36,396 bases of DNA from Candidatus Saccharimonadota bacterium (GCA_028289045.1 JAQGHB010000051.1:1-36396); one strand, 5' to 3'; shown: positions 4,726-32,742, numbered from the stretch's first letter. Numbers and translations are program-made. Notes: generated by a model not told the origin, from the letters alone.

Positions 4726-4728
4726 AGC

Positions 4729-14653: not shown

Positions 14654-14656
14654 TGA

Positions 14657-15172: not shown

Positions 15173-15180
15173 ATATTCTC

Positions 15181-16314: not shown

Positions 16315-16369
16315 GCCCTTAATATACATGAAACTTGCACTTTTTGGTGCTGTCGCTAACAATAGAGGC

Positions 16370-17332: not shown

Positions 17333-18730
17333 ATGAAGCCAATACAGCTGCCGACACCATCTGCCGTTACGAACTTTAGTGCCATCGACCCGCTCGATAG
17401 TCGTTACTACGATCCGGAAATTGCACGTTATCTATCCGAACAGAGCCGAATCGCCTATCAAGCGCATGTGGAAGCTGCGCTGGCTTTTACGCTAGCCGAT
17501 TTCAAGATCTGCAGTCCCGATATTGCTCGTAAAATCGAAGCCGCTACTACTAAAGTCACCGCCCGAGCAGTATACGAAGCCGAAAAAACCACCAAACACG
17601 ACATTAAGGCATTAGTGAACACGATTAAGAGTGAGCTAGATGAGGATGCTCAGCCCTATGTGCACTTTGGGGCGACATCATATGACATCGTTGCCACAGC
17701 AACTGCCTTGCAGCTGCGCACAGCTATTCAGCAATTAGTGTTGCCACGCCTAAAGAAGCTTGATGAGACTCTACTGACTTTGACAAAACGCTACGCTGAT
17801 ACCGTCCAAATTGGTCGTACTCACGGCCAACACGCGGTGCCAGTCACCTTTGGTTTTGCGATGGCCGAATACGCCAGCCGACTCACTGACAGCACGCTAG
17901 CGCTCAAGGATCTCAGCGACATGCTCACCGGCAAATTCTCTGGCGCTGTGGGTGCCTATAACGCCCTTAGTTTATTCGTCGATGACCCTATGAAGTTCGA
18001 GGAAACTGTTCTGGGTCATTTAGGTTTAAAGCCAGCAGCCTATTCTACCCAGATCATTCCAGCCGAAAATATTATTCGCTTAATAGATGAGCTGGCGATC
18101 ACCGCTGGCATCATGGCTAATCTATCGCATGATATGCGCCACTTGCAGCGTACGGAAATCGCTGAAGTCCGCGAAGCATTCGAAAAAGGCCAAACCGGCT
18201 CCTCGACTATGGCTCACAAGCGTAACCCCTGGAACTTCGAAAATGTCATTAGCATGTCCAAGCAAGTCACCGCCCAGATCGTCAACGCCAACCTGAACAT
18301 CAGTAGTGAGCACCAGCGCGACCTGACAGATTCTGCTTCAGCCCGTTTTTATGGCATCGTCCTGGCGAGCGTGGCCTCCATGGCCGAACGTCTAGACCGA
18401 ATCATGAACAAGCTCGAAGTCGACGAAGCTAGCATGCAGCGCAACCTCTACCTCACCGGTGGCGCTATTGCAGCCGAACCCCTGTACTTGCTGCTCGAGA
18501 AATACGGTCACACCACGGCCCACGAAAAATCAAAAGAAGTCGCCCACGCCGCTCTCGATGCCGGCATCAAACTCTACGAAGCCGCTGAAAAAGATAAAGA
18601 ACTTAAACCTTACTTCGAAAAGTTCACCAAGCGAGAATTACAGATACTAGAGAACCCCGAAAAATATTACACAGGTCTAGCTTCTGAAAAAGCGCTGACT
18701 GTATACGAGCGCTGCAGCAGCCAGCTATAG
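17333..18730 (+). CDS. purB: adenylosuccinate lyase
   Basis: Fumarate-lyase signature GSSTMAHKRNP. The ATG directly abuts the purC stop (TAAATG). Confidence 0.93.
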   Translation: MKPIQLPTPSAVTNFSAIDPLDSRYYDPEIARYLSEQSRIAYQAHVEAALAFTLADFKICSPDIARKIEAATTKVTARAVYEAEKTTKHDIKALVNTIKSELDEDAQPYVHFGATSYDIVATATALQLRTAIQQLVLPRLKKLDETLLTLTKRYADTVQIGRTHGQHAVPVTFGFAMAEYASRLTDSTLALKDLSDMLTGKFSGAVGAYNALSLFVDDPMKFEETVLGHLGLKPAAYSTQIIPAENIIRLIDELAITAGIMANLSHDMRHLQRTEIAEVREAFEKGQTGSSTMAHKRNPWNFENVISMSKQVTAQIVNANLNISSEHQRDLTDSASARFYGIVLASVASMAERLDRIMNKLEVDEASMQRNLYLTGGAIAAEPLYLLLEKYGHTTAHEKSKEVAHAALDAGIKLYEAAEKDKELKPYFEKFTKRELQILENPEKYYTGLASEKALTVYERCSSQL

Positions 18731-19429
18731 CCGCGAAAGTCGCTGATCGTTCAAATAATCTTGTATGTCGATAGGCAGCCAGACTTTTTCGGTGGTTTGA
18801 ACATTCTGAGACAAGTCTTCGGCTGTGTCGCCAGGCATTACCGGAACGGGATGAGAACGAAAAACACTGCCAGTATCATAATCAGCGGCAACTGCGTGAG
18901 TGGTTTGCGCGGAGTAGCTCAGCCCGTCCTCTAACACCTTCTCCTGAACATGGATGCCGTGATAGCCCTGGGTGTGCGGAAGCGGCCCTGGGTGTGTGTT
19001 AAGCATGCGGGCGTCAAAACTTGAAGTATGGGTCGACAGCGCGCCGTATTCTTCCAGTAATTCGCCGCGAACCTTTCTCATATAGCCTACCAGACCCACC
19101 AGCGCGGTGTTGCTTGCGGCTGCGACAGCGCATATGGCCTCGGACTCAGCCAGGGATTGTTCGCCACGCTGGCCAGCGCCAGTTGGATGAGTCTGGCCGC
19201 TAATATGTAGCTTTCGGATGCCAAGACCATATTGCTTATTCAGACGGTCAACACGATCAAAGACACCGGCGTCCTCGTTGTTGGAGATAACCTGGACGAC
19301 TTCTGCCTGTAAGATGCCGGTTTGGGTGGCGTGAATTACTGCTTCGGCGGTTGAGCCGCTGCCGGAAGCGAGGAGGGTAATGACGGGATAGTGACGTTCA
19401 CTCATAATTGATTGCATGTATGGTGACAC
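18725..19429 (-). CDS. purN: phosphoribosylglycinamide formyltransferase (PurN-like), divergent
   Basis: LLASGSGS nucleotide loop, NTHPGPLP (Asn/His catalytic pair) and a later Asp block (ADYDTG). The track start at 19429 is a GTG, and ATG alternatives lie at 19417 and 19405. Confidence 0.78.
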   Translation of the reverse strand: MSPYMQSIMSERHYPVITLLASGSGSTAEAVIHATQTGILQAEVVQVISNNEDAGVFDRVDRLNKQYGLGIRKLHISGQTHPTGAGQRGEQSLAESEAICAVAAASNTALVGLVGYMRKVRGELLEEYGALSTHTSSFDARMLNTHPGPLPHTQGYHGIHVQEKVLEDGLSYSAQTTHAVAADYDTGSVFRSHPVPVMPGDTAEDLSQNVQTTEKVWLPIDIQDYLNDQRLSRL

Positions 19430-19642: not shown

Positions 19643-19673
19643 AGAGGATTTAGTGTTGACTCATTTAATGAAA

Positions 19674-19702
19674 TTTTAATCTTTAGGATTAAAAATTACA
19701 AG
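19674..19702 (-). promoter_or_regulatory. sigma70-like promoter (TTGTAA-17-TAAAAT) upstream of the purN leader
   Basis: Minus-strand hexamers TTGTAA (19702-19697) and TAAAAT (19679-19674) with a 17-nt spacer, in the AT-rich gap after the dockerin gene. Confidence 0.4.
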
Positions 19703-19721: not shown

Positions 19722-21269
19722 CTACTGACCCCAGAAGCTGCAGAGGGTAGACAGATCGAAGATATCAACCGTGCCGTTGCCATCGAGGTCACCTTGAGCT
19801 CGTGTGGCACCAGATGTCTTGCCGTAGTTGCTGGCGAGAGCGCTGAGATCGAAGATATCAACCGTGCCATTACCATCAACATCACCGCTCTTAACAATCG
19901 TAGTAACAGCCAGGGCTGTTGATGACGCAGAGGTCTTGGCTGCAGCGTCGTAGGCTTGGATGGTGAAGGAGTACGTGGCTCCGGAAGTTAAGCCTGTTGC
20001 GGTGTAAGAGGTCGTGGCGCTGGTACCAACCTTGGTGCCATTGCGGAGTATATTGTAGCCGGTTACGCCGACGTTATCGGTGGAGGCGGTCCAGCTCAGC
20101 GTGGCAGTGGTCGCAGTTTTAGATGGAGATGTCAGACCAGTTGGAACTGAAGGAGCGACGGTGTCAGCCAGCGTGCTTACAGACAATGCCGCTGTTTGGG
20201 CTGAAGTCTTGGCTGCGGCATCGTAAGCTTGAACCGTGAAGGAGTAGGCAGTGCCTGGCGTGAGGCCGGTGCTGGTGTATGAGGTTGTGGCGCTGGTACC
20301 AACTTTTGTGCCATCACGGTAGATGTTGTAGCCGATCACGCCGACATTATCGGTGGAGGCGGTCCAACCCAATGTGATGCTATTTACCGTGCTGGCCGAC
20401 GAAGTTAATCCGGTTGGAATGCTGGGCGCTACTGTATCGGCAGCCGTGCTTACTGCGAGAGCTGTTGATGAAGCTGAAGTCTTGCCTGCGGCATCGTACG
20501 CTTGAATGGTATACGAATAACTGGTGCTCGGGGTTAACCCTGTATTCGTGTAGGAGGTCGTAGTAGTGGTCGCTAGCTGGGTGCCATTGCGCAGGATATT
20601 GTAGCCAGCCACGCCCACATTGTCGGTGGCAGCTGCCCAGCTCAAACTAATGCTTGTCGCTGTCGTGGCGCTTGATGCCAGACCGGTCGGAACACTGGGA
20701 GGCGTCAAATCGGCAATGGTGTAGGTAGCGCCAGTGGTGGCGCCAGCCGCTATGTCCTGCTGCGTGGTCGTGCTCACGAGTGCAGTGCCGGTACCAAACG
20801 CAACAGAGGTCGTGCCGGTGGTAAGAGCTTTAAATGTCACGACCGCAACTGTCTGTGAGCCGGTGCGCACTGCGGTGGCGCCGCGGGCTATCTGTAGCAG
20901 GCCTGCGCCGTTATCGGTAGTTTGGGCGGCGATATCAAAGGCGCTGGTGCCGGTAGGTGTGTCAGTGCTGACGTAGCTTAACTTCGTAGGATCATAGGTA
21001 AGGTTGGCCTGAACCGCGTTGACCGTGTCTGTAGTACTATTTTCCATAATGGTCACCGTAAAGTTATTGCCAAGGCTAATTGATGAGCTGGCCGGTGACA
21101 AGCTCATGGAGCCTGGTGTGGCAGCGTGTGTGAAAGCTAGAATGTAGATTCCGACGCCGGCAAAGATAACGGCGAACAAAGCAGCAGTAAGCTGGGGGCC
21201 TTTCAAGTTTTTCAATTTTTTGGTTACTGATTTCATAGTAATGCCCAGATTAAGGTTTCTGCTCCTCAT
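19722..21269 (-). CDS. secreted/anchored cohesin - 3x fibronectin-type-III - dockerin protein
   Basis: N-terminal hydrophobic signal/anchor. Cohesin-like module (TVTIMENS..VNAVQANLTYDPTKLSYV..VTFKAL). Three roughly 91-aa FN3 repeats. C-terminal duplicated Ca-binding dockerin segments GDVDGNGTVDIFDLSAL and GDLDGNGTVDIFDLSTL. Alternative ATG at 21236. Confidence 0.85.
   Translation of the reverse strand: MRSRNLNLGITMKSVTKKLKNLKGPQLTAALFAVIFAGVGIYILAFTHAATPGSMSLSPASSSISLGNNFTVTIMENSTTDTVNAVQANLTYDPTKLSYVSTDTPTGTSAFDIAAQTTDNGAGLLQIARGATAVRTGSQTVAVVTFKALTTGTTSVAFGTGTALVSTTTQQDIAAGATTGATYTIADLTPPSVPTGLASSATTATSISLSWAAATDNVGVAGYNILRNGTQLATTTTTSYTNTGLTPSTSYSYTIQAYDAAGKTSASSTALAVSTAADTVAPSIPTGLTSSASTVNSITLGWTASTDNVGVIGYNIYRDGTKVGTSATTSYTSTGLTPGTAYSFTVQAYDAAAKTSAQTAALSVSTLADTVAPSVPTGLTSPSKTATTATLSWTASTDNVGVTGYNILRNGTKVGTSATTSYTATGLTSGATYSFTIQAYDAAAKTSASSTALAVTTIVKSGDVDGNGTVDIFDLSALASNYGKTSGATRAQGDLDGNGTVDIFDLSTLCSFWGQ
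19896..20711 (-). repeat. three tandem ~273-bp coding repeats (FN3 modules)
   Basis: Units at about 20711-20439, 20438-20166 and 20165-19896. Each encodes D(L/T)(T/V)(P/A)PS.PTGL.S......(I/T)(S/T)L.W.A.TDNVGV.GYNI.R.GT......TTSYT.TGLT....YS(Y/F)T(I/V)QAYDAA.KTSA. The similarity is visible at DNA level. Confidence 0.85.
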
Positions 21270-22467
21270 TAGTCGGCTTGGTGATACTACCAGGTGTTTG
21301 GGGTTTTGGACTGTCGGGGTGGATTGAGATCGGTTTGCTCAGATCGCCAACTACCATGGTATCTGGTGTGCCTGAGCCGCCCATGCCGGATGGCGGGTTG
21401 AACTTATTCTTGCGAGGGATGATGAAGCCCGCGATACCGAGTCCGGCGATGACCAGGAGTATGAGACCGTAGATGAGCCAGCTTGGTGTGGCATGGGATG
21501 CAAGTTTGATATTGAACTCTTGCAAGTTCTGCTTGTCTGAAGTTGGTTGAACGACTTTAACTGACTGAGACTGTGTTTTGCCAGAGTATGTGACTTTCGC
21601 GTTATAGGTACCGACGGCCACGCCGATGAAGCCAGCCAAGCCGTTGGCATCAGTTTTAAGTGTTTTACCATCAAGGGTCACAGTAGCGCCCACCACAGCT
21701 TTGTCCTTGCTGTCATGCACTTTAATGGCGACAAAGTAGGTGCCTGGGGTCAAAATGCCTGGAGTTTCGCCGGTAGCGCCTGTGGTGTTAGGAGTAGTCG
21801 CGGGTGTTGGGGAACCTGATACACCAGTGGTTGATGGTTTTGTAGGCTTGGAAGTCGTCGAACCACCGGAAGCAGGCTTGGAGCTACTCGAGCCACCGCT
21901 AGATGCAGGTGGCGTCACGGGGGTCGGAGGTGTCACTGCCGCGGCTTTCAACACGAAGTTTGCTCCTGCAGGATCGTCATTCCAAAGATTTGAATGATCG
22001 ATGCTACTGGCGACGATGGCGGTCGCGCCAACAAAGCGCAGTGGCGTGCCTGATGATGTTCCGATGACTTTAAAGACAAGCGTACCAGCTGTTTGGCTGC
22101 CTGTAAGTTGACCATTGAGCTGAGCACGAATAATATTCGCTACGCCGCCGCTTGCATCGGTTGAAATATCGACACTGCTAAAGGCGGCTGCTGAAGCGTC
22201 AAGGCTGATAAATTGCAGGACGCTAGGATCGTAGCTGAGATCAACATGCACTGCGTTTACGGCTTGCGTGCCGCTATTCTCGGTAATCTTAGCGCTAATC
22301 GTGTCACCAACAGTGTATGTACCGCTGGAGGGAGTAATACTATAGATTGCATTGCCTGCGGCTTTGGCGCTATGAACAGCAAATCCCAGGACCGCTACAC
22401 CTATAACTACTGCTAAAAGCCCGCTATGGGCGAAGGTTTTTATTTTTGATTGGGGTTTTATGGTCAT
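21250..22467 (-). CDS. membrane-anchored cohesin-domain surface protein (scaffoldin-like anchor)
   Basis: Signal peptide ending HSAKA. Cohesin-like module (ISAKITENSGTQAVNAVHVDLSYDPSVLQF..LVFKVIG). Ser/Thr/Pro-rich linker. CarboxypepD_reg-like beta-sandwich (VGATVTLDGKTLKTDANGLAGF). C-terminal TM helix WLIYGLILLVIAGLGIAGFII plus a cytoplasmic tail. Confidence 0.8.
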   Translation of the reverse strand: MTIKPQSKIKTFAHSGLLAVVIGVAVLGFAVHSAKAAGNAIYSITPSSGTYTVGDTISAKITENSGTQAVNAVHVDLSYDPSVLQFISLDASAAAFSSVDISTDASGGVANIIRAQLNGQLTGSQTAGTLVFKVIGTSSGTPLRFVGATAIVASSIDHSNLWNDDPAGANFVLKAAAVTPPTPVTPPASSGGSSSSKPASGGSTTSKPTKPSTTGVSGSPTPATTPNTTGATGETPGILTPGTYFVAIKVHDSKDKAVVGATVTLDGKTLKTDANGLAGFIGVAVGTYNAKVTYSGKTQSQSVKVVQPTSDKQNLQEFNIKLASHATPSWLIYGLILLVIAGLGIAGFIIPRKNKFNPPSGMGGSGTPDTMVVGDLSKPISIHPDSPKPQTPGSITKPTNEEQKP

Positions 22468-22574: not shown

Positions 22575-23639
22575 TTACTGCCATCTTTTTCCGCAATATA
22601 ACACAAGTTCTGTTAAGTACGTTTTGAGCTGCACGGGCATGCCAACTTCTTGCAGCACGGTAACGGCGGCTGCGCAGTAGTCGCCTATCAGGGCTTCTAC
22701 TTTTGTATGGGCGCCATTTTTCTGCAAAATCTGTTGTACCGAGTTGAGCTGAACTCTAGTGGCTAATGGATTGCCGAGAATATCAAGGAGCTTTTGGCGA
22801 TCTGTTTGGCTGGAAAGGCGCAGACCGTAACTCATGAGTAGTGTGCGCTTGCCTTCCCGTATGTCGCTGAGCGTGGATTTGCCTAGGCGCTGCTCGTCGC
22901 CAAAAATGCCGAGTATGTCATCTCGCAACTGAAAAGCTGTGCCAATGTGGGCTCCAAATCGTTCTAGCTGATCGAGTTGTGGCTGGCTAGCTCCAGCCAG
23001 CAGCGCCCCGAGCTGTAGCGGCGTCGAAAAGCTATAGGCCGCGGTCTTGGTCTGACTGACGTGTAGGAGATGCGTATCGTCATCTGTTTCTTCCCAGGTA
23101 GTACCCAGTGGCAAAGCAGTATCGGCCAGCTCGCCCCCAACCACCGAAAAAGTGGTCTGATGCACCAAGGCTGCCGCGCGTAGCAGGTCAGTGGCCGGAA
23201 AGTCGCTGGCTAGCAGTACCTCATGCGAAAGATTATGACAAATATCGCCAGCGAGCAGCGCCCAGGCATTGGCGTAGTGATGCGCCTCGCTATCTTTTAT
23301 AGTTTTTCTAAGTTCCTCATAGTAATGACCGCTAATATTGGGGCCGCCCCAGCGCACCACGTCGCGGTCGATAATATCGTCGTGCACCAGAATAAAGGCA
23401 TGGAAAAGCTCTTGACTGGCAGCGACAGGGATAATAGCGTCGGACTTCTTGCCGCCGTAGGCTGTGTACGCTCGAATGACGAGTTCCGGACGCATACGTT
23501 TGCCGCCCCGCGCGATCAGTACGGCAATTTGCTCTAAGAGGTCGGCGTAGGCGGGGCCAATGGCCTGCGCCTGAGCTGATTTACTCGCGAGAAGTTGGGC
23601 TATGAACGCTTCTATTTGCTGCTTTGATGAGTCTCTCAT
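22575..23639 (-). CDS. short-chain trans-prenyl diphosphate synthase (FPP/GGPP synthase family)
   Basis: First Asp-rich motif LVHDDIID with no insertion and Phe at -5. Second motif FQLRDDILGIFGDEQRLGKSTLSDIREGKRT. Its ATG overlaps the upstream stop (ATGA at 23636-23639). Confidence 0.9.
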   Translation of the reverse strand: MRDSSKQQIEAFIAQLLASKSAQAQAIGPAYADLLEQIAVLIARGGKRMRPELVIRAYTAYGGKKSDAIIPVAASQELFHAFILVHDDIIDRDVVRWGGPNISGHYYEELRKTIKDSEAHHYANAWALLAGDICHNLSHEVLLASDFPATDLLRAAALVHQTTFSVVGGELADTALPLGTTWEETDDDTHLLHVSQTKTAAYSFSTPLQLGALLAGASQPQLDQLERFGAHIGTAFQLRDDILGIFGDEQRLGKSTLSDIREGKRTLLMSYGLRLSSQTDRQKLLDILGNPLATRVQLNSVQQILQKNGAHTKVEALIGDYCAAAVTVLQEVGMPVQLKTYLTELVLYCGKRWQ

Positions 23640-25495
23640 TTCTGATATTCCAATATAAATTTTTGAGTTTCCTGGCTACCGGCGACGGCCCGTTCGGCTG
23701 ACGCTTCCAATGGAGTGAGCCAATCTAAAAACAGCTTTGGGCTGGCTATGTCGGATTGAGTGAGCGCTTTACGGGCGGCGCTGCTATGACTCGTGATGAG
23801 CTCGGCGACAACATGTATGGTCGATCGCCAAAATATCTGCCGCAAAACAGGCAATTCGGTTTTGAGGTTGATCGATCCCGCAGCGCCGTGCTCTTTGAGT
23901 AGCAAGCAAGCCACCGCGCTCAAGTGGCCGCGCGCCAGATCTTCTTCCCAATCATGGGCGTCATCATTAAGCTGGCGCGCAATCAGGAAATGATGAAAAA
24001 ATTTCTGAAGTTGCGGCACTTTGGCTGCACTGTTTCCGGCCATCAGCACGCCGCAGGCCGCCAAGCTGTGCCCCCACGAGCGCTCTGCCAGCTGCCGGTA
24101 GTCTCCATATGTCGGCAAGGTGTAGTGTAGCCTGCCCTTTAGCGCGGTGGCCCGAGCTTGAGTAACTTCCCAGAGATTGGCAGTGTCCATGGCGACAAAA
24201 GCGTCATCAACCAGTGCGGTAAAACGTACGTTGTCAGGCAGCGCTTTGGCAAAATGTGTAACCGATTGGCGGAGCGCGTAGTGCGCCGCGCTCAGCAGTG
24301 CCAGCTGTCCTTCCTCATCCAAAAAGTCATCATAGATACTGTAGGCAATCCAGCCATTGAGGCTACCCAGGTTGAGCTGTTCTAACATTTTTTTGTCGGC
24401 TGTACGGTCGTAGGCTCGGGCTGTCAGTGTGGCCATATCGCTAATTTGGCCATCATGATCACGCGCAGCAATTTGCCTAACAATGTTTTGATACGCTGTA
24501 CCGAGTTCCGCGGGTAGCGATTTGCTGCTGGCAAGGGCCGCTCGTATGGTCGGGCTGGTCACGACGAGAGTTTTTTTCGGTGTTTCCTCGGAATGGATTT
24601 CAGAAAGCGCTTCCAGCGCAAACGCAGTCGTCAATGCCGCCGAACCGGCGTAATACTGCTGACCATCGAGATGTGGGTCAACGTACAGCGCTTCGGCTGG
24701 CCAGTGTCCGTCATGGCGCAGCGCCAGCAATCGTCTACGCGCGGAAGCAATTTTGGATGCTGGCAGCTGTATATTGCGGGCGGCGGTTATAAGAAGCGCC
24801 AGCTGCAAGCTAGTATGAGTTTTGGACGCGTCCAAGCTGTCGGCAACGAGTTTTTGGAGCGCATTCAGCTGGGGCCCCTTGTACCAGCGCGACAGAAAAT
24901 ATAACGAAGGAATACTGCTCACGTAGTACGGCGATCTCAGCGTATTTTTCTGGATGGCTTCATCCAAGAAGCTGTTTAGACCAGCCAGCTCAACGCCTTG
25001 CCGGCTAAAAAAAGCACCAATATTAGCGTTGACCACAACATCGATATCTTGCCACTGCGTGCCATCAGATTTCACTAGCCAGGTACGATACGGTCCGCCT
25101 GGTGCCGCCTCGGTGGCAATCAGTAATTTAGCGAATTGAGCCAGCGCGGCGGCATCAACTAGCGTGGAGTTGAAGCTCTGCAGCGCCAAAAGCGCGCAAC
25201 TAGTATCGTCGAGATCATCCGGATACGGGTGCTGCAGGGCCATATCGCTGCTAGTTTGCCAGTAGTTCCAGGATCCCTGCGGACTCTGTTGGCCTTGCAA
25301 AAAAGCGACTGCTGCGGCGCGAATAGAATCAGTACCCGCGACATTGCGCAGACACCATACAATCAGCGATGTAAAAAAGTTGGTAGGATGCTGCCGCGTT
25401 GGTTCAAACGGCATCATCGCAGTACTGGCCTGCCCCATAAAACTGCCGTCCGCGGCTTGCTGGTTCGCCAAGTATGCCACCCCCTCTGTCATCAT
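23636..25495 (-). CDS. fusion protein: N-terminal squalene-hopene-cyclase/prenyltransferase-type alpha/alpha barrel + C-terminal squalene/phytoene-synthase-like class I isoprenoid synthase domain
   Basis: N-terminal roughly 300 aa: QW-type motifs YLANQQAADGSF and FLQGQQSPQGSW, plus YPDDLDDTS (nt 25202-25216), which resembles the DxDDTA of class II cyclases. C-terminal roughly 290 aa: DDFLD (nt 24317-24331) and, 121 aa later, QLNDDAHDWEEDLARG (nt 23942-23968 covers NDDAHDWEE). The second aligns with the QLxNIxRDVxED..RG motif of CrtM/CrtB/SQS. Confidence 0.75.
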   Translation of the reverse strand: MMTEGVAYLANQQAADGSFMGQASTAMMPFEPTRQHPTNFFTSLIVWCLRNVAGTDSIRAAAVAFLQGQQSPQGSWNYWQTSSDMALQHPYPDDLDDTSCALLALQSFNSTLVDAAALAQFAKLLIATEAAPGGPYRTWLVKSDGTQWQDIDVVVNANIGAFFSRQGVELAGLNSFLDEAIQKNTLRSPYYVSSIPSLYFLSRWYKGPQLNALQKLVADSLDASKTHTSLQLALLITAARNIQLPASKIASARRRLLALRHDGHWPAEALYVDPHLDGQQYYAGSAALTTAFALEALSEIHSEETPKKTLVVTSPTIRAALASSKSLPAELGTAYQNIVRQIAARDHDGQISDMATLTARAYDRTADKKMLEQLNLGSLNGWIAYSIYDDFLDEEGQLALLSAAHYALRQSVTHFAKALPDNVRFTALVDDAFVAMDTANLWEVTQARATALKGRLHYTLPTYGDYRQLAERSWGHSLAACGVLMAGNSAAKVPQLQKFFHHFLIARQLNDDAHDWEEDLARGHLSAVACLLLKEHGAAGSINLKTELPVLRQIFWRSTIHVVAELITSHSSAARKALTQSDIASPKLFLDWLTPLEASAERAVAGSQETQKFILEYQK

Positions 25496-26898
25496 GAACT
25501 CGGCTTAGTCTGGCTGCGCAGTCTGACAGTAAAACAAGTGCCGCGCTTCGGCGAACTGGTGACAGTGATGCGGCCCATAAAATCAGCGGTGACAATCTGC
25601 TGTACCATCGCCAGACCAATGCCCATATTCTGCTGATTATGCTGCTTAGTGCTGTAGAACGGCTCGAAAATATGCTGCTTTTCATCTGCGCTGAGGCCGT
25701 GTCCCCAGTCGCAGACCTGCACCTGACAGGTTTTCTCGGTGCGCTTAATGGTGATGACTACGCGCCTTTCACCAAAAGGTGTCGGGTGGTCATCGTATGC
25801 TTCAATGCTATTAATAAGCAGGTTAGCGATTAGCTGATTGAACTTCACCGGATCGCCAAACAAGCGAATCTGAGCGTCGCTTATGATCTCAAACTTGACG
25901 CCACCCTCGCGGGCTCGGTGGCCGAGAATACGCGTCACTTGCTTTACTTCCTGGTGCAGGCTGAAATTAGTGAGGTTGCCCTGCCCTTTGAGCTGCTTGC
26001 GTGCAGCGTCAACGAAGCGTTCAATGTGCTGCAGACTTTGAACGGCTCGGCGCAGCAGAACTGGCCGCGGCTCACTGCTGTGTTGCTCTAAGTTCAGTGA
26101 TGCTACCGTCAAAGGATTTGACATTTCATGTAGTAAACCGGCACTGAGCCGCCCAAATTCTGCTAGGCGCTGTAATTCCATAACGCGGACGAGTTGCGCC
26201 TGCTCTAGCTCGCGAGTGCGCTCGGCGACTTTAACTTCCAGATTATCGCGCTCTAGTTCCAGCGCATGTTCGGAGGTGCGAGCCCGAGCTAGCGAGCGAG
26301 TGGTCTCACGATTGGCCAGCCAGGCCACCAGCCCGATTATCAAAAGTATAACGGTGTAGCCAATCGCCGAGGCCATTTCAAGTCTAAAACCTGCCCAGCT
26401 CAGGTCGGGATGAAGATAGCCGTACACTTGCGCGTAACTGATTGGCAAAAGTCCCACCGCGACAACGCAGCTGGCAATCAGCGCCGCCCGCGCGGTGAGC
26501 AAGACGCCAGCTATAACAATGGCGAGCGCCAGAACAAGTTGAGCTGAGGGTAATTCAAAACTCCATGTCAGAACGAGCTGTAGGGCTGCGACCAGTAAAA
26601 ATCCCACCAATACGTAGGCGACAACTTGGTGGTAGCCTTTGCGTGATAATTTCCATAAGCCAGCGATAACCACCGTAAAAACAAGCAGTATTGGCAACGC
26701 AGAACCTTTGCCGCCACCATCCAGACGATTACCTATATTAGAAAGATCAGCAATAACCGCGATGACCGTTAGTCCACAGAGCAAAATATTCAGAATAAGC
26801 TCTCGACGCTGCTGGTCTGGGGTCAAGCTGCGCGGCGCGAGAAATTTTTTGTACCAATTTGAGGTGTCAATTTGAAAGCGGAAACGGGACACAGGCAC
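25492..26898 (-). CDS. sensor histidine kinase with six N-terminal TM helices and no extracytoplasmic domain
   Basis: Six hydrophobic helices joined by short loops, then a coiled coil. H-box FGRLSAGLLHEMSNPL, N-box LLINSIEAY, G1 DWGHGL, G2 GIGLAMV. GTG start. Its stop overlaps the next ATG (ATGA at 25492-25495). Confidence 0.9.
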   Translation of the reverse strand: MPVSRFRFQIDTSNWYKKFLAPRSLTPDQQRRELILNILLCGLTVIAVIADLSNIGNRLDGGGKGSALPILLVFTVVIAGLWKLSRKGYHQVVAYVLVGFLLVAALQLVLTWSFELPSAQLVLALAIVIAGVLLTARAALIASCVVAVGLLPISYAQVYGYLHPDLSWAGFRLEMASAIGYTVILLIIGLVAWLANRETTRSLARARTSEHALELERDNLEVKVAERTRELEQAQLVRVMELQRLAEFGRLSAGLLHEMSNPLTVASLNLEQHSSEPRPVLLRRAVQSLQHIERFVDAARKQLKGQGNLTNFSLHQEVKQVTRILGHRAREGGVKFEIISDAQIRLFGDPVKFNQLIANLLINSIEAYDDHPTPFGERRVVITIKRTEKTCQVQVCDWGHGLSADEKQHIFEPFYSTKQHNQQNMGIGLAMVQQIVTADFMGRITVTSSPKRGTCFTVRLRSQTKPSS

Positions 26899-26927
26899 AA
26901 CCTATACAGTAGTAATATTGATGTTTT

Positions 26928-26957
26928 ATGAAGGGATCGGTTACCCGATCCCTTCAT
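26928..26957 (-). other. perfect 13-bp stem / 4-nt loop hairpin directly after the 38-aa ORF (attenuator or transcript-stabilising element, not a canonical terminator)
   Basis: ATGAAGGGATCGG-GTAA-CCGATCCCTTCAT on the minus strand, starting 2 nt after the sORF stop. It is followed by AAAACATC, not a U-tract. Confidence 0.6.
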
Positions 26958-26959
26958 CA

Positions 26960-27076
26960 CTAGGCTACGTCAGCCCATGGCGTAAATGTCTCCGCCATGG
27001 AACTCGCCAAGTCTGGCATGCTCGCCGCGTCGCGTGCCGACACGTCGGTGAGCACTGTTTGCAAGAGCTCGTTCAT
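26960..27076 (-). CDS. unannotated 38-aa acidic small ORF between response regulator and kinase (MNELLQTVLTDVSARDAASMPDLASSMAETFTPWADVA)
   Basis: The ATG lies 20 nt after the RR stop and is preceded by AAAGGGGG with a 6-nt spacer. The ORF is followed by the hairpin. It falls below the 60-aa cut-off of the ORF track. It has a single Trp five residues from the C-terminus, no Cys and no signal peptide. Confidence 0.5.
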   Translation of the reverse strand: MNELLQTVLTDVSARDAASMPDLASSMAETFTPWADVA

Positions 27077-27096
27077 TGCCTACCCCCTTTATATTA

Positions 27097-27786
27097 CTAT
27101 GTGCTACTACTTTTGAATGCATCAATTTTGTAGCCAAGTCCATGTACCGTTTTGATTAACGGTGTCCCAAATGGGCGGTCAATTTTGTCGCGCAGGTATT
27201 TGATGTGCACGTCAACGGTATTGGTCAATGAATCATCGGTATCGTCCCAGGCGTAGCTGCTGAGCGTGGCCCGCGTCACGACCATGCCGGTATTTTGCAT
27301 CAGGCATTCCAGGACGGCGAATTCTTTGCGCCGCAGCGGAATGTTTTGCCCTGCTCGCTGTACTAGGTGCTTAATGGTATCAAGCTCCAGATCGCCGACA
27401 ACCAGACGATGGCGACTTTTGGATGAGCTGCCTGGACGGCGCGTCAGCACCCGCAAGCGAGCTTTTAGCTCGTCCATACTGAAAGGCTTGGTGAGATAGT
27501 CGTTGGCTCCGCTGTCGAGGAGGGTTACCTTGTTCATAACTTCAGTGGCACCGCTTAAAACCAGGATAGGCGTGGTGAGCCCGCTGGTACGAACTCGCTC
27601 GCAGATTTTGAGGCCTGGCGAATCAGGAAGGTTTAAATCCAGAATAATAGCGTCGTATGGGTGCTCGGTGAGCTTTTGCATGGCTCGGGCGCTGGTACCG
27701 ACCGTATCCACCGTATATAGCGTCGCTAGGGCGCGGTACAGCACCAGAACTATGCCTGGATCATCTTCTACAATCAGTAAGCGCAT
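27097..27786 (-). CDS. OmpR/PhoB-family response regulator
   Basis: Receiver domain (LLIVEDD, ILDLNLPD, TKPF) plus a winged-helix output domain (LRRKEFAVLECL ... VHGLGYKI). Confidence 0.93.
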   Translation of the reverse strand: MRLLIVEDDPGIVLVLYRALATLYTVDTVGTSARAMQKLTEHPYDAIILDLNLPDSPGLKICERVRTSGLTTPILVLSGATEVMNKVTLLDSGANDYLTKPFSMDELKARLRVLTRRPGSSSKSRHRLVVGDLELDTIKHLVQRAGQNIPLRRKEFAVLECLMQNTGMVVTRATLSSYAWDDTDDSLTNTVDVHIKYLRDKIDRPFGTPLIKTVHGLGYKIDAFKSSST

Positions 27787-27798
27787 AAGATTTTAATC

Positions 27799-27804
27799 AT
27801 TATA
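27799..27804 (-). promoter_or_regulatory. -10 box TATAAT located 12 nt upstream of the RR ATG (short-leader or leaderless transcript)
   Basis: A perfect TATAAT on the minus strand. No SD lies between it and the ATG at 27786. The -35 is weak. Confidence 0.35.
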
Positions 27805-27865
27805 GAGTTATTATCACCCTCAATCATTAAAAAATTATTAACTTTTACCTAAATTAGATGAAAAG

Positions 27866-28126
27866 TTAAGATCGTCGACGTGTCATGAGGCGTAAATTCG
27901 ACAGATATTGCTGCGGATTAACCTTGGGATGCTCGCTGAGGTAATGCATGTGCTTGTCGATAAATGAGATGTTGTGCTCGGGATGATCAACTTCATTGGC
28001 GCTGTAGCTGGATTCGGTGTTGTAGGATATGTCGCGCTCCATAGCGGTGAGGATGGCTTTAATTGCAGCGGCTTCCTCGGAGTCATAAAAACGGCGTTTG
28101 CTGGCGGTGGCATGCATGTTAGACAT
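27866..28126 (-). CDS. hypothetical 86-aa protein
   Basis: Clean ORF whose ATG is embedded in the end of the upstream 22-aa ORF (ATGTCTAA). I recognise no motifs. Confidence 0.5.
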   Translation of the reverse strand: MSNMHATASKRRFYDSEEAAAIKAILTAMERDISYNTESSYSANEVDHPEHNISFIDKHMHYLSEHPKVNPQQYLSNLRLMTRRRS

Positions 28127-28187: not shown

Positions 28188-28341
28188 AGTATTCTCCCCT
28201 GTTAGGTATGGCGTGATCGGCTGGATAATTCTGATCCTCCGGCCAGGCTTACTCCTTAGTATGCGCCTTTTTGGCCATTTTGCCTAGCTCGTGTCTGATT
28301 ACGCCAGTACGACTACTGGCAGAACCTACAAAACTATAATA

Positions 28342-28370
28342 TTGAAAAATAATGAAAGACGTGTTAAAAT
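28342..28370 (+). promoter_or_regulatory. sigma70-like promoter TTGAAA-17-TAAAAT, 10 nt upstream of the GT2 ATG (leaderless-type)
   Basis: Hexamers at 28342-28347 and 28365-28370. The ATG at 28381 has no SD. Confidence 0.45.
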
Positions 28371-28380
28371 ATTGTTAATT

Positions 28381-29541
28381 ATGAAGACCGAGACAACTTC
28401 AGCTCGTCTGTTAAAAACACAGGCCCAACATTCTTCAAGCGCACGTGTATACAAGAAGAAGCTAGCTTTGCTGCTGCCTGCTCACAATGAAGAACTTATT
28501 ATCCAGGCCACCATTCTGTCGGCCATCGCCGCTGGCCAGCCCAAAGACCGTATTTTTGTGGTTGACGATAACTCATCGGATAAAACTCGCCGCAAAGCAA
28601 TGGAAATACTGGGACATAAGCAAGTCCTAACCGTTCAGCGCAGTGGCAAGGCCCTAGCTGTTTACAAGGCAATACGTCGCTTCAAAATTGTGGAACGCTA
28701 TCGCTGGTTGCACGTGGCTGACGCCGACAGCGTCTTCGGAAGTGATTATTTCCGAATCTACAGTCCGGCGCTCAAAGGCAAAGAGTACGTCGCAGCTGTG
28801 GGTTTCGTGCAGAGCCTACGTGGCAACTGGATCAGTAAATATCGAGTGTTTAGCTACACCTACGGACAGCAAATATTGAGACGCATGCAGTCAAAGGTGG
28901 GTATGATATCGGTCTTTCCTGGGCCTGTCACCAGTTTTCGTACTGACATCATTGAAAAGCTTGATTTCTCGGCCGAAAGCCTTACCGAAGATTTTGATAT
29001 TACATTACAATTCCATCGCCAGAAATTAGGCAAAATCCGCTATATACCTAATGCTGTTAACTTTACGCAGGATCCTCAAACACTTCGTGATTTCTGTAAG
29101 CAAACTGCGCGTTGGCATCGTGGATTTTTCCAGGGCGTTCGAAGGCATAAAATTGGCCGTCGTGCACAGCCCATCGATCTATACATCGGCTATCAGCTGA
29201 CCGAAACAGTGCTTTATTTGGCACAAATTTTTATACTCCTGCCGCTGCTTATTTTTAGTACACACCCTCATCGCTGGAGCATCATCCCGCTCTTTATGTT
29301 GACTGAATATTTTATGATTTGTATCATCGCGATTTTTACCGCTGCCGCCGCGAAGAGGCCCATCAGTCTGAGCGTTGTGCCAGTATTCTACCTGATGCGT
29401 ATGCTCGAGCTAGGAATCTTTACGATGGCGTTTTTCGAAGTCATTGTGCTGCGACGCTTTCAGCAGCAAACCATCGGCTGGCAAACCGAAAATCGTCGTT
29501 ACTCATTGGATAGTAATGCTCTGCAGGATGCAGCCTCATGA
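28381..29541 (+). CDS. processive family-2 glycosyltransferase (PgaC/IcaA/NodC/cellulose-synthase-like)
   Basis: LLPAHNEE, VVDDNSSD, ADADS, TEDFD and the QxxRW-type motif QTARWHRG, followed by C-terminal TM helices. I placed the start at 28381 on promoter evidence. The track ORF begins 30 codons upstream at a GTG. Confidence 0.85.
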   Translation: MKTETTSARLLKTQAQHSSSARVYKKKLALLLPAHNEELIIQATILSAIAAGQPKDRIFVVDDNSSDKTRRKAMEILGHKQVLTVQRSGKALAVYKAIRRFKIVERYRWLHVADADSVFGSDYFRIYSPALKGKEYVAAVGFVQSLRGNWISKYRVFSYTYGQQILRRMQSKVGMISVFPGPVTSFRTDIIEKLDFSAESLTEDFDITLQFHRQKLGKIRYIPNAVNFTQDPQTLRDFCKQTARWHRGFFQGVRRHKIGRRAQPIDLYIGYQLTETVLYLAQIFILLPLLIFSTHPHRWSIIPLFMLTEYFMICIIAIFTAAAAKRPISLSVVPVFYLMRMLELGIFTMAFFEVIVLRRFQQQTIGWQTENRRYSLDSNALQDAAS

Positions 29542-29669: not shown

Positions 29670-30263
29670 CTAGACTTTTTGGAAGCCAACGAACGCGAAC
29701 TGATACATCTGGCGATTTTGGAACCAGCTGCCTGAACATGTCTGGATAGTTAATAGCGGGGCACCCTGGTACTCAAATATTGAAGTATCTGTAGGGTTCG
29801 TAGCGTAAGCGCCGATATAACGGTAGGTGAAAACGTAGCCATTTGTAGCTTTTACCTGAACGAGACTGCCATCTTTTATCAAATGTAGCCGTGCGAAGAC
29901 CTCAGCGCGATAGTGGCCGTATATGAGCGTGTTGCCGCGAGCATTATTAGGTATGACGCTAGGCGTGGCGAACTGGGCTTTGTCAGACGTCAGTGTCCAA
30001 GTGCCCTCTGCGCGATTGTAGTAGCCATTAATAACAGGCAGATCAATCCCAAGGTCTGGAATGATAATTTCAGCTGGCTGACCGCTCACCGTTACCGGCG
30101 GAAGTTTACTGGCGGCGGATGACATCTGTTTGATGTTGCCGGGATTAATACTGCCGGCATCGGTAGTCTGATAATAAATGGTTGGCGCGATGCCGACGAT
30201 GCCAAGCACGACAAGCAGCAGGCTCAGTTTAAGTATTTTTCGTGGTGGGAGATGTAAATTCAT
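29670..30263 (-). CDS. sortase (cysteine transpeptidase)
   Basis: N-terminal membrane anchor. Catalytic His in LIYGHY, TLxTC-type Cys in LLTIQTCSG, and the conserved Arg in FQNRQMY. Confidence 0.9.
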   Translation of the reverse strand: MNLHLPPRKILKLSLLLVVLGIVGIAPTIYYQTTDAGSINPGNIKQMSSAASKLPPVTVSGQPAEIIIPDLGIDLPVINGYYNRAEGTWTLTSDKAQFATPSVIPNNARGNTLIYGHYRAEVFARLHLIKDGSLVQVKATNGYVFTYRYIGAYATNPTDTSIFEYQGAPLLTIQTCSGSWFQNRQMYQFAFVGFQKV

Positions 30264-30738: not shown

Positions 30739-32742
30739 ATGAAGCGATTTTTCTTATTCCTAGCGACGTTTTTACTACTAACTGTGAGCGTTTTCCCTGC
30801 TGTCACAGTCTTTGCTGACACACCAGCCAACAATCTTATCTCTAATCCATCGCTTGAAGCTGCAGACGCAGCCAATCCTGCCGCGCCATCTGCCTGGCTA
30901 AAAGGTGGTTGGGGCAGCAACACTTCTTCGCTTTCCTACGCCTCCACCGGAAACACCGGCAGTCGTAGCGTCCGTGTCGACGTTACCAGCTATACCGATG
31001 GCGATGCCAAATGGTATTTCGCGCCAGTGGCCGTCACCGGTGGCAACCAGTACTCCTTCAGCGATTATTATCAGTCAAATGTCGCCACCAATCTGGTAGC
31101 TCAGTTTGATGATGGCGCTGGAAAGATGACCTACCAGAGCCTAGCGACCTTGCCGGCATCGAGCACCTGGAGTCCTGCTAATCTGGTATTTAAGGCGCCA
31201 GCAACTGCGCACAATGTCACCGTATTTCATCTTATAAGTAGTGTGGGTTGGTTGCAGACAGATGATTTCTCGCTCAGCGCCTATGCGCCAGCACCAGCTC
31301 CCACGGTGAGTATTACAGCTCCTTCTGCCAACACTTCGGTAAGCAATACGGTAGCACTCACTGCTAGTGCTACAGACACGACCGGTGTTGCTGGCGTACA
31401 ATTCAAGGTAGATGGTGCTGCAGTTGGCTCTGAAGATACGACAGCCCCCTATGCTGTTAACTGGGATAGCAACGCCGTCATAAACGGCCTGCACAGCCTG
31501 ACCGCTGTTGCCCGTAACACCTCTGGCCAAACCAGCACCTCGGCTCCTGTGCAGATTCTGGTGGCTAACAAAAACACCAGCACATCGAACGTCGTGCCTA
31601 ACAGCTCCCTGGAGACCACCGATCCTGCCAATGCCAAACTGCCACAGAGCTGGCAAAAAGGCGGTTGGGGCAGCAATACCACGGCCTGGACCTATCCATC
31701 GAACGGGCACACCGGCAGCCGTAGTGTCAAAGCGCAAATCAGCGCGTACACCAATGGCTCGGCATACTGGTACTACGGTGCTCAAAATGTGACCTCCGGC
31801 CAGGTATATCGCTTCACCGACTACTACAAATCCAATGCGATCAGTGACGTCGAGGCTGGCGTAACCATGGCCGATGGCAGTGTGCAGTATGTCTATATTG
31901 GCAGCCCATCACCCAGTTCAACCGCTTGGACTAAGTTTGACGCTACACTGACTATGCCAGTCGGTGCAGTCTCGGCCACTATCTACCACAGCATCAATAG
32001 CGTCGGCTGGGTACAGATAGATGATATGACAATGGCGCCATTTGCGTACCAAGGCTTCAACCGCCCGCTGGTCAGTATCACCATAGATGACGGCTATGCC
32101 AGCTCCTACACCAATGGTTTGCCCATTCTGAAGAAGTACGGCTTCACCTCGACCAACTACATCATCACTGGCTCGATCGGTACTGACCCGTACATGACTA
32201 AGGCCCAGCTCAAGCAAATGGCGGCCAGTGGTCAGGAAATTGGCTCACACACCGTTACTCATCCGGACTTGACTACCCTGAGTGCCACCAAAATGGATAA
32301 CGAGCTCAAGAAATCCCAGGCTTCACTGGTGTCTTGGCTTGGTGCCGGTGTGCCAATTAAGCAATTCGCATCGCCTTATGGTGCTTATAACGGCGCTGCC
32401 GTGGCTGACGCTCAGAAATATTACAGCACCTACCGTGGCGTGCAGGCTGGTTACAATGCCAAGAATAATTTTGATCCATACAACATCCGCGTTCAGAACC
32501 TGGTGAGTACTACCACCCAGGCTGAAGTCCAATCCTGGGTCGACACCGCCAAAGCCACTAATACCTGGCTCGTGCTGGTTTACCACCAGATTGATACCAA
32601 TCTTGCCTCTGATGATAGCCTGTACAATACACCGCCCGCAGACTTTGACGCCCAGTTGGCCTACATTAAAGCCAGCGGCATCGCCGTCAAGAACATCACT
32701 CAGGCTATGGCTGAGCTGACCCCTCAGCTGACCTCAAACTAA
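30739..32742 (+). CDS. secreted polysaccharide deacetylase (NodB domain) with two CBM-like modules and an Ig-like module
   Basis: Sec signal ending VFA. Two paralogous roughly 150-aa modules (N..PN.SLE..D.AN...P..W.KGGWGSNT......GHTGSRSV...) flank an Ig-like segment. C-terminal NodB block VSITIDDGYAS ... GSHTVTHPDL. Confidence 0.85.
   Translation: MKRFFLFLATFLLLTVSVFPAVTVFADTPANNLISNPSLEAADAANPAAPSAWLKGGWGSNTSSLSYASTGNTGSRSVRVDVTSYTDGDAKWYFAPVAVTGGNQYSFSDYYQSNVATNLVAQFDDGAGKMTYQSLATLPASSTWSPANLVFKAPATAHNVTVFHLISSVGWLQTDDFSLSAYAPAPAPTVSITAPSANTSVSNTVALTASATDTTGVAGVQFKVDGAAVGSEDTTAPYAVNWDSNAVINGLHSLTAVARNTSGQTSTSAPVQILVANKNTSTSNVVPNSSLETTDPANAKLPQSWQKGGWGSNTTAWTYPSNGHTGSRSVKAQISAYTNGSAYWYYGAQNVTSGQVYRFTDYYKSNAISDVEAGVTMADGSVQYVYIGSPSPSSTAWTKFDATLTMPVGAVSATIYHSINSVGWVQIDDMTMAPFAYQGFNRPLVSITIDDGYASSYTNGLPILKKYGFTSTNYIITGSIGTDPYMTKAQLKQMAASGQEIGSHTVTHPDLTTLSATKMDNELKKSQASLVSWLGAGVPIKQFASPYGAYNGAAVADAQKYYSTYRGVQAGYNAKNNFDPYNIRVQNLVSTTTQAEVQSWVDTAKATNTWLVLVYHQIDTNLASDDSLYNTPPADFDAQLAYIKASGIAVKNITQAMAELTPQLTSN

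Follow-up and report, generated by a model that had tools for sequence, protein, structure and literature searches.

A conserved two-component cassette of Patescibacteria with a small tryptophan peptide and a predicted prenyltransferase-cyclase fusion: a candidate ComQXPA-like autoinducing system

What does a bacterial two-component system sense, or control, when its genes are joined to those of terpenoid enzymes? The question is raised by a 36,396-nucleotide stretch of DNA from a Candidatus Saccharimonadota bacterium (GCA_028289045.1, JAQGHB010000051.1:1-36396; hereinafter the window), on the minus strand of which a response regulator (RR), a 38-aa small open reading frame (sORF), a sensor histidine kinase (HK), a 619-aa fusion protein and a prenyl diphosphate (prenyl-PP) synthase are encoded in succession. 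These five ORFs had been delineated in an earlier, sequence-only reading of the window and all of them were recovered here with the same boundaries, as were the ATGA start/stop overlaps that join the HK gene to the fusion gene and the fusion gene to the synthase gene (Table 1). That reading had proposed that a membrane-soluble isoprenoid, or alternatively an isoprenylated peptide, made by the last two genes is the signal for the kinase or its controlled output; the evidence gathered here favors the isoprenylated peptide over the membrane-soluble isoprenoid. In Bacillus, ComQ, a member of the isoprenyl pyrophosphate synthase (IPPS) superfamily, geranylates or farnesylates a tryptophan of ComX, and the product is sensed by ComP/ComA (PMC5331326, PMC4008528). 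By analogy, we consider it probable, albeit with modest confidence, that the cassette in the window works as an autoinducing system like ComQXPA, with a Trp-terpenylated, cyclized peptide as the pheromone.

The association of the two-component system with the fusion protein, originally read from a single locus, is found in many other genomes. We searched 80 related loci by tblastn with the window proteins, and in 77 of these, that is in 77 of the 78 informative ones (the upstream sequence is missing in two), the HK gene lies directly upstream of the fusion gene on the same strand. Clustering of the ORFs from all 80 loci yielded only four recurrent families, namely the fusion (80 loci), the RR (68), the HK (65 under a strict 60%-coverage criterion, compared with 77 by tblastn) and the prenyl-PP synthase (23). 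The RR gene is located upstream of the HK gene on the same strand in 58 of the 80 loci. The two-component system and the fusion are an evolutionarily fixed unit, and the RR-sORF-HK-fusion arrangement, which recurs in dozens of distantly related genomes, is far beyond chance. Moreover, a look-up that started from the peptide encoded by the sORF, and was independent of the enzyme, led in five of six loci to an HK with a 642-667-aa protein encoded immediately downstream.

The fusion family, which is wholly unannotated, comprises at least 339 proteins in a word-indexed protein database, and relatives were detected in at least 299 species-representative genomes from many classes of Patescibacteria, including Saccharibacteria, Levyi-, Davies-, Shapiro-, Doudna-, Colwell- and Moraniibacteria, among others. 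Searches with the C-terminal domain alone retrieved 1,139 clusters at 50% identity (E < 1e-10), nearly all of which represent the fused form of about 640 aa, and the best 150 matches listed in a deep search with this domain all belong to the same fused family. No match to the fusion was found by tblastn among 72,556 plasmids. The best-matching homologues assign the window itself to a member of the Saccharimonadales (Patescibacteria). Several cassette-bearing genomes carry labels from outside Patescibacteria, namely 'uncultured Gammaproteobacteria' (loci L025, L027, L047 and L062), 'Verrucomicrobiia' (L003), 'Bacillota' (L059), 'Vitreimonas sp.' (L063), 'Methylomirabilota' (L061) and 'Dormiibacterota' (L028); these may be mislabeled metagenome-assembled genomes or instances of the cassette outside the candidate phyla radiation (CPR).

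The sORF, to which no role had been assigned in the earlier reading, is among the most tightly conserved parts of the cassette. Nearly all loci have a same-strand ORF of 34-43 codons between the RR and HK genes, and in about 58 of them it is homologous. The 58 peptides align essentially without gaps, with Arg15 and Trp34 invariant (58/58) at fixed spacing and with a conserved N-terminal block, M-x-x-L-L-x-x-V-L-T-D-x-x-x-R. The tryptophan is directly preceded by proline in 45 of 57 sequences, including the window copy (Pro33-Trp34), and is followed by one to six residues across the 58 loci, four in the window copy. The middle segment is variable, being hydrophobic and transmembrane (TM)-like in Microgenomates-type loci and polar in Saccharibacteria. 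The family has no match in Pfam, and the 30 matches found by profile search of the databases, with a 40-aa homologue at the top, are all annotated as 'hypothetical'. A tryptophan near the C-terminus is also the feature of the proven Trp-prenylated substrates ComX, PalX and StheX (PMC10853753; bioRxiv 10.64898/2026.08.29.745113), and this likeness speaks, by analogy, for the cassette peptide as a prenylation substrate.

The fusion protein shows no match above threshold in the family libraries, the only signals being sub-threshold squalene-cyclase-like ones in the N-terminal part and Terpene_synth_C-like ones in the C-terminal part. It was analyzed through an alignment of 31 diverse members, which share about 35-54% identity with the window protein, and through an AlphaFold2 model that consists of two confident domains (pLDDT 92) connected by a linker (residues 304-311). 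For the N-terminal domain, the cyclase domain of the drimenol synthase AsDMS was retrieved both in a profile search against PDB (E = 1.8e-18) and by Foldseek (E = 3.5e-10, about 315 columns, root-mean-square deviation 3.2-3.5 A); the next Foldseek matches are squalene-hopene cyclase and the drimenyl-PP synthase SsDMS, and MstE is a weak profile match (E = 0.017). AsDMS (PDB 9mhs, 9m7d-f) is the closest solved relative of this domain, with which it shares a single terpene cyclase beta (TC-beta) domain, the PDDLD(D/T)T motif and the catalytic Asp and Tyr. The domain is a single alpha/alpha barrel of about 300 aa that aligns to the lone TC-beta domain of AsDMS, and no beta-gamma didomain class II module, as in bifunctional class II/class I terpene synthases of the alpha-beta-gamma type, is present in it. 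In the active site of AsDMS, D333 is the general acid, D331 its partner and Y427 a hydrogen-bonding partner of the acid, and R378, R380, R425 and R513 bind the diphosphate (PMC12365925). HMMER alignments equate D331, D333 and Y427 with D94, D96 and Y191 of the fusion, and Y191 and the whole YPDDLDDT motif (D94, D96 and D97) are invariant in the 31 sequences; judging from these residues, the domain looks catalytically competent. The positions of the four arginines, in contrast, are occupied by W148 (invariant), D150, P189 and a variable residue, respectively, and because of these replacements the domain probably recognizes a head group other than free diphosphate. The partner domain differs as well, being a HAD phosphatase in AsDMS and an IPPS-fold domain here.

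The C-terminal domain has no Pfam match above the cut-off (best E = 0.086-0.09 for polyprenyl_synt and 6e-4 to 0.03 for Terpene_synth_C). Foldseek matches for this domain are the solanesyl-, geranylgeranyl- and octaprenyl-PP synthases and the indole farnesyltransferase Ord1 (TM-score 0.6-0.64), and hhalign aligned its RQLNDDAHD...WEEDLxxGH block with the second Asp-rich motif (SARM) region of IPPS enzymes (73% probability, E = 3e-5). The domain contains a motif resembling the first Asp-rich motif (FARM), D389-D390-x-x-D393, and a second one, Q508-x-x-D511-D512-x-x-D515-x-x-x-D519-x-x-x-G523; D389 and D393 of YDDFLD, Q508, D511, D512, H514, D515, D519 and G523 are invariant in the 31 sequences. 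The catalytic residues of Ord1, Q216 and D219, are part of the arrangement Q216-x-x-D219-D220 (PMC12510300), and both FARM and Q-x-x-D-D are common to Ord1 and the C-terminal domain. The assignment of the fusion to terpenoid enzymology in the sequence-only reading is borne out by profile and structural comparison, which identify a class II cyclase joined to a class I/IPPS-fold domain. Nothing points to the C30/C40 lipids or the membrane homeostasis that had also been envisaged; there is no squalene/phytoene synthase (SQS/PSY) match and no conserved NSE/DTE triad. By eye, the second motif fits the SQS/PSY consensus DxxxDxxxG(R/H), yet no SQS_PSY match is obtained at E <= 10 and the structural matches are of the IPPS type; a YtpB/class IB 'large terpene synthase' assignment has no support from Pfam.

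Two interpretations of the fusion in which the peptide receives no prenyl group bear directly on these data. Conceivably, the enzyme could be a PvCPS-like assembly line, with chain elongation to geranylgeranyl diphosphate (GGPP) by the C-terminal domain followed by formation of a copalyl-PP-type product by the N-terminal cyclase, the peptide being unrelated. The IPPS-fold structural matches and the local hhalign similarity to the SARM region of IPPS would agree with such an arrangement, and fungal fusions of a prenyltransferase with a class II cyclase are known (PMC12393454). We nevertheless consider it very improbable: the polyprenyl_synt profile never rises above threshold, the GK[RK]xR motif that binds isopentenyl diphosphate (IPP) is absent from all 31 sequences, and a separate, bona fide IPPS, which would be redundant in such an assembly line, has been recruited repeatedly. 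The didomain protein could instead lack catalysis and serve the HK as a cytoplasmic sensor or accessory that binds an isoprenoid metabolite and leaves it unchanged, as the strict adjacency and translational coupling to the HK might suggest. Because every metal-binding Asp is invariant, as are the catalytic acid and the Tyr that partners it, across sequences as divergent as about 35-54% identity, catalysis appears to be retained, which renders a purely sensory role highly unlikely.

With respect to the receptor, the HK contains a weak HisKA domain (2e-4) with the H-box HEMSNPL and a HATPase_c domain (3.5e-21) according to a Pfam scan. Hydropathy analysis identifies five clear TM segments (34-52, 66-84, 92-110, 123-141 and 176-194) and a weaker sixth one at about 143-165, all separated by short loops, so that the six TM helices described previously are a fair approximation, of which five are clear and one is less so. 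Taken together with the features of the peptide and the fusion, this organization is compatible with the following scheme for the preferred, ComQXPA-like reading. The product of the sORF would be the precursor peptide, and the C-terminal trans-IPPS-fold domain of the fusion would alkylate the indole of its Trp34 with a C15-C20 allylic diphosphate from the adjacent synthase. The N-terminal class II cyclase would then protonate the double bond at the far end of the transferred prenyl group, generating a drimane/labdane-like polycycle. The resulting lipophilic terpenyl-peptide, either released or partitioned into the membrane, would be detected by the HK with its five to six TM segments, which in turn would phosphorylate the OmpR-type RR. 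A diphosphate of the drimenyl type is no longer allylic; for this reason, and because the cyclase has lost the diphosphate-binding arginines, transfer of the prenyl group most likely precedes cyclization, as far as can be judged from the residues involved. A stronger version of the proposal, that this is an ancient, phylum-wide and native CPR autoinducing system in which a peptide with a polycyclic terpene on Trp is sensed within the membrane by a 6-TM HK and an OmpR-type RR acts on TTAAT-N6-TTAAT sites, is offered tentatively, as something short of probable.

In the main rival reading, a free cyclic terpenoid, made from GGPP or farnesyl diphosphate (FPP) by successive class II and class I-type steps and sensed by the HK, with the peptide serving as a regulator of the kinase or a membrane adaptor, would accommodate several of the same observations. 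The class II DxDD motif and two complete Asp-rich motifs are invariant, as befits sequential cyclization and diphosphate ionization; the sub-cut-off matches to Terpene_synth_C and the frequent adjacency of an IPPS gene point the same way, as does the intramembrane type of the HK sensor. Several further points weigh against the preferred reading, and three of them (the middle region of the peptide, the intact second Asp-rich motif and locus L082) favor the free terpenoid in particular. The peptide is proposed as the acceptor from genomic context and by analogy, and the TM-like middle region that it has in some lineages means that it may be a small membrane partner of the HK. The Q-x-x-D-D arrangement also occurs in ordinary IPPS enzymes, including the synthase encoded in the window, and does not discriminate between them and Ord1-like transferases. 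The second Asp-rich motif (DDxxD...D519), which is a degenerate, metal-free 'pseudo-SARM' in ComQ, StheQ and Ord1, is intact and invariant in the fusion, and because it is fully kept, the C-terminal domain may ionize a diphosphate more in the manner of a cyclase or a synthase. Furthermore, one locus found through the peptide (L082, 4290-6442) has RR, peptide and HK genes with no enzyme gene within 3.7 kb downstream; this may be a 'listener-only' genome, or the enzyme may be encoded elsewhere. Conversely, in L015, the sole true exception to the HK-fusion adjacency, the enzyme is present without an HK and an alpha/beta hydrolase gene occupies the HK position. Finally, across the 80 loci, there is no conserved exporter or leader peptidase near the cassette, and the ORF clustering revealed no conserved transporter, protease or immunity gene around it.

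These points notwithstanding, we hold a free terpenoid signal to be unlikely, if worth serious consideration. Class I cyclases have an NSE/DTE triad that is not kept in the C-terminal domain, in which DDxxD is present, the Ser/Thr position is taken by His514 and the Glu position, 518, is variable; the best structural matches of this domain are IPPS-fold enzymes, including Ord1, and not terpene cyclases; and the N-terminal cyclase lacks the diphosphate-binding arginines of AsDMS. Moreover, a free terpenoid would leave unexplained the invariant Trp and Arg that are maintained at fixed spacing in the peptide across phylum-level divergence, and the action of fused prenyltransferase-cyclases on a peptide tryptophan is established (PMC13290415).

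As for the donor of the prenyl group, the synthase is a bona fide trans-prenyl-PP synthase (PF00348, E = 1.5e-49) with FARM and SARM in the form of DDIID and DDILG; its chain length is not specified by NCBIfam, where the GGPP, FPP and short-chain matches all fall below the equivalog cut-offs. It had been listed as part of the unit but is not a core member, being present in only about 23-27 of the 80 loci (a quarter to a third) and in variable positions, usually directly downstream of the fusion but between the RR and peptide genes in L026 and upstream in L013 and L051. The synthase is therefore a recurrent but dispensable accessory for the predicted supply of prenyl donor. Among the loci found through the peptide, L081 also carries an IPPS gene, and in L083 a 528-aa NUDIX + polyprenyl_synt fusion is encoded directly downstream of the didomain enzyme (8493-10079, plus strand); the latter is possibly an IPP-isomerase-like/IPPS protein that supplies the prenyl donor.

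The sequence-only reading had further envisaged an autoregulatory circuit, and this appears very probable from a conserved, RR-type direct repeat at the promoter of the RR gene. Counted on both strands, 2.83 Mb of related loci contain 112 copies of the pattern TTAAT-N6-TTAA(T/G), 47 of which are located 30-140 nt upstream of a cassette RR gene, in at least 44 of 67 loci, with five more at 27-29 nt; in addition, the 7-mer ATTTAAT is present in 37 of 47 RR upstream regions, where four would be expected. The repeat overlaps the -35 region of the RR promoter, and the spacing of its half-sites, 11 bp, is the usual geometry of OmpR/PhoB-family sites. A (T/G)A(T/A)AAT box 9-10 nt past the repeat, corresponding to the -10-like box of the window, is also found in L004, L005, L009, L013, L014 and others, and the promoter previously placed upstream of the RR gene gains support from this box and the conserved putative operator, although a generic sigma-70 scan yielded no more matches than expected from shuffled sequence. 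At least seven loci (L041, L047, L055, L062, L063, L065 and L079) have an extra repeat about 39 nt upstream of the enzyme gene, and six of these seven are among those with the longest HK-enzyme gaps. We infer that the RR binds the repeat; the pattern matches that expected of positive autoregulation, in which binding of TTAAT-N6-TTAAT by the RR at its own promoter would yield more regulator, peptide, HK and enzyme.

In the window, perfect copies of the RR box are limited to two, the one in the RR promoter and one at 19665-19680 (plus strand), which lies between a purN-like gene and the 3' end of a dockerin gene with no plus-strand gene downstream and is probably due to chance. A scan of the window for a wider regulon gave six matches with at most one mismatch, compared with 2.2 expected, which is not significant, and no link to the cohesin/dockerin genes. 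Extra TTAAT-N6-TTAAT boxes were observed in five other loci (L025, 6571; L032, 12851, minus strand; L054, 12851, minus strand; L028, 6004; L058, 6811), 39-64 nt upstream of a beta-lactamase-family gene in three of them and of a gene for a Crp-like regulator in two; these genes, which are close to the cassette, are possible additional regulon members.

Whether the cassette is a single transcription unit, as had been supposed, is a separate matter. A conserved stem-loop between the peptide gene and the HK gene makes a strict single mRNA doubtful. The stem-loop in the window directly follows the peptide stop codon (Table 1). Of 58 loci, 32 carry an equivalent hairpin at this place (z < -2); for a control region taken from within the HK gene, the figure is 1 of 57. 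Hairpin sequence varies from locus to locus, and with their T-runs several of the hairpins are terminators of the canonical kind. Generic scans for sigma-70 promoters and for terminators gave no excess over the shuffled expectation. The stem-loop is a putative attenuator or transcript stabilizer, and transcription is probably attenuated between the peptide and HK genes. Lantibiotic operons commonly carry a stem-loop behind the gene for the precursor. The pattern is as expected when precursor mRNA is to outnumber the rest, and the stem-loop would maintain the peptide mRNA above that of the HK and the enzyme.

The gene order of the cassette had not been recognized from any described system, but its logic does have precedents, in the four parts of ComQXPA (PMC4008528) and in the fused prenyltransferase-cyclase maturases reported in 2024 (reviewed in PMC13290415). 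The likeness to ComQXPA consists in an IPPS-superfamily prenyltransferase, predicted in the case of the cassette, a short Trp pre-peptide, a polytopic HK and an RR encoded on one strand with tight gene overlaps (PMC4008528, PMC5331326). The differences are considerable. The order is RR-peptide-HK-enzyme and not Q-X-P-A; the RR is of the OmpR type (Trans_reg_C) as opposed to NarL/LuxR, and the HK contains HisKA as opposed to HisKA_3; the enzyme comes with one domain more, a class II cyclase, and its second Asp-rich motif is complete; and the hosts are Patescibacteria, whereas a 2014 census found comQXPA in Firmicutes only. The cassette peptides have no sequence similarity to ComX and resemble it in features only (34-43 aa, Trp one to six residues from the end). 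Pfam and NCBIfam scans gave no match to the ComQ family (IPR033965) above threshold; the C-terminal domain has the trans-IPPS fold and a FARM, in a comparison made through models only. The cassette is analogous to ComQXPA and not demonstrably orthologous to it.

In terms of predicted enzymology, the closest counterparts are NctPC and ChrPC, fused maturases that attach C10-C20 prenyl groups to Trp of a ribosomal peptide and then cyclize the prenyl moiety, ChrPC combining a trans-isoprenyl diphosphate synthase (IDS)-like P domain with an MstE-like C domain (PMC13290415, a 2026 review citing Hubrich et al. 2024, Chem 10:3224). Like these proteins as described there, the cassette enzyme would unite a prenyltransferase and an MstE-like monodomain class II cyclase in one polypeptide: it has a trans-IDS-like domain (at the level of the fold only) and a class II DxDD-type cyclase domain. 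A conserved Trp peptide that may be the acceptor is encoded nearby. It appears to differ from ChrPC and NctPC, as described there, in the N-terminal location of the cyclase. Further differences are the precursor, a new family of 34-43 aa with no proteusin, Nif11 or lasso leader, and the fixed linkage of the enzyme gene to a two-component system with a predicted autoregulatory operator, distributed phylum-wide in the CPR. PalQ (PMC10853753) and the StheQ of a Chloroflexi species (bioRxiv 10.64898/2026.08.29.745113) are peptide Trp prenyltransferases that share with Ord1/XiaM and with the cassette enzyme an all-alpha IPPS fold and, in the cassette by prediction, alkylation of indole C3; Ord1 is in addition a direct structural match with FARM and Q-x-x-D-D in common. 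In the oridamycin/xiamycin pathway, Ord1/XiaM prenylates free indole and a cyclase then forms a drimane-type ring system (PMC12510300). Ord1 differs from the fusion in that it acts on the free indole and has a degenerate, metal-free second motif, which is intact in the fusion. Cyclases of the xiamycin type are membrane proteins and separate enzymes, whereas that of the cassette is a soluble, fused TC-beta domain.

The circuit also resembles the agr and nisin-type systems, in which a precursor, a maturase, a polytopic HK and an RR are combined with positive feedback on their own promoter; these differ in the modification, a thiolactone or lanthionine as opposed to the predicted terpenylation, and the cassette has no linked exporter or protease. 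Lantibiotic systems combine a precursor and a maturase with an autoinducing two-component system, and the characterized cyclic-isoprenoid peptides of the RiPP class (made by ribosomes and modified after translation) are reportedly bioactive natural products, not pheromones. The same terpenylated Trp peptide might thus be primarily an effector, such as an antimicrobial, membrane-inserting or host-interaction lipopeptide of these epibiotic bacteria; the two-component system would then provide nisin/subtilin-like autoregulation of the producer and not the sensing of population density. The cell-surface theme of the genes that flank the cassette in the window would be in line with this possibility: they encode one protein that combines cohesin with CarboxypepD_reg, another with three FN3 domains and a dockerin, a sortase, two GT2 glycosyltransferases and a polysaccharide deacetylase that has a Big_7 domain. 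However, according to the ORF clustering, the flanks differ between loci and these surface genes do not accompany the cassette in other genomes; nor is there an RR box ahead of them. Furthermore, no immunity, ABC-export or protease gene is conserved with the cassette, which is minimal and self-contained like agr and comQXPA. We regard an effector function as improbable and retain the pheromone reading.

Table 1. Location of the cassette components, candidate regulatory signals and flanking genes in the window
Feature	Coordinates	Strand	Basis
RR, OmpR-family response regulator, 229 aa	27097..27786	-	Response_reg 3.7e-24 + Trans_reg_C 1.3e-23
Precursor peptide gene (sORF; predicted role), 38 aa, MNELLQTVLTDVSARDAASMPDLASSMAETFTPWADVA	26960..27076	-	homologous ORFs in RR-HK gaps
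HK, polytopic sensor histidine kinase, 468 aa, GTG start	25492..26898	-	HisKA + HATPase_c, 5-6 TM
Fusion protein, 619 aa, two domains	23636..25495	-	profile, structure, conserved motifs
N-terminal domain, residues 1-303, monodomain class II terpene cyclase (TC-beta), YPDDLDDT	24587..25495	-	AsDMS profile + structure
C-terminal domain, residues ~312-619, all-alpha trans-IPPS fold, prenyltransferase-like	23636..24562	-	Foldseek, hhalign
Prenyl-PP synthase, short-chain trans-type, 354 aa	22575..23639	-	polyprenyl_synt 1.5e-49
Putative RR operator, direct repeat TTAAT-AATTTT-TTAAT, overlaps -35	27826..27841	-	conserved repeat upstream of RR genes
-10-like box GATAAT	27810..27815	-	10 nt downstream of second half-site
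Strong Shine-Dalgarno AAGGGGGT of peptide gene	27082..27089	-	read from sequence, 5 nt upstream of ATG at 27076
Perfect stem-loop, 13-bp arms, GTAA loop	26928..26957	-	directly after peptide stop; dG -24.3 kcal/mol, z = -6.3
Cell-surface-themed flanking genes	19722-22467 (-), 29670-30263 (-), 28291-29541 (+), 30739-35178		window

Two further features of the window lie outside the cassette. One is an ORF of 86 aa (27866-28126, minus strand) that matches nothing in Pfam and is located just upstream of the promoter of the cassette; in L004, L014 and L082, homologues with 48-53% identity are encoded no more than a few kb from the cassette. The other is a near-complete de novo purine block (85-19429), with guaA-, purA-, purL-, purM-, purE-, purK-, purC-, purB- and purN-like ORFs around tandem archaeal-type PurP genes (DUF1246 + DUF1297, E = 1e-38 to 1e-69) at 5448-6461 and 6461-7591, both on the plus strand. 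Saccharibacteria are generally described as being without de novo nucleotide synthesis, which makes this block unusual.

The kinds of activity that we ascribe to the cassette are known, both in enzymology (prenyltransferase plus cyclase acting on a peptide Trp) and in circuit logic (ComQXPA, agr). What appears to be new, in the searchable literature, is their combination, the precursor family, the constant linkage to an OmpR-type two-component system that has a defined operator and the phylum-wide distribution in Patescibacteria. Literature searches that linked Patescibacteria or Saccharibacteria with terpenes, prenylation or quorum sensing returned nothing specific, and no description of a native signaling system of this kind was found for them. 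The CPR/Patescibacteria make up a large share of bacterial diversity. They live for the most part attached to other cells, and the conserved genes of unknown function in their tiny genomes are mostly unexplained. If the present interpretation is correct, this would be the first cell-cell signaling system assigned to these ultra-small CPR epibionts, as well as the first case of a cyclic-terpene modification of a peptide that is used for signaling rather than antibiosis; the prediction entails a new precursor family for cyclic-isoprenoid peptide modification and the first tie of such chemistry to a two-component receptor. The parts, namely the 38-aa peptide together with a single soluble enzyme and a single IPPS, are small and suited to heterologous reconstitution, with the operator as a ready reporter, and the enzyme could be a tool for peptide lipidation with rigid polycyclic terpenes. 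As a self-contained four-gene module, the cassette would offer a testable handle on how CPR bacteria sense their kin or their hosts.

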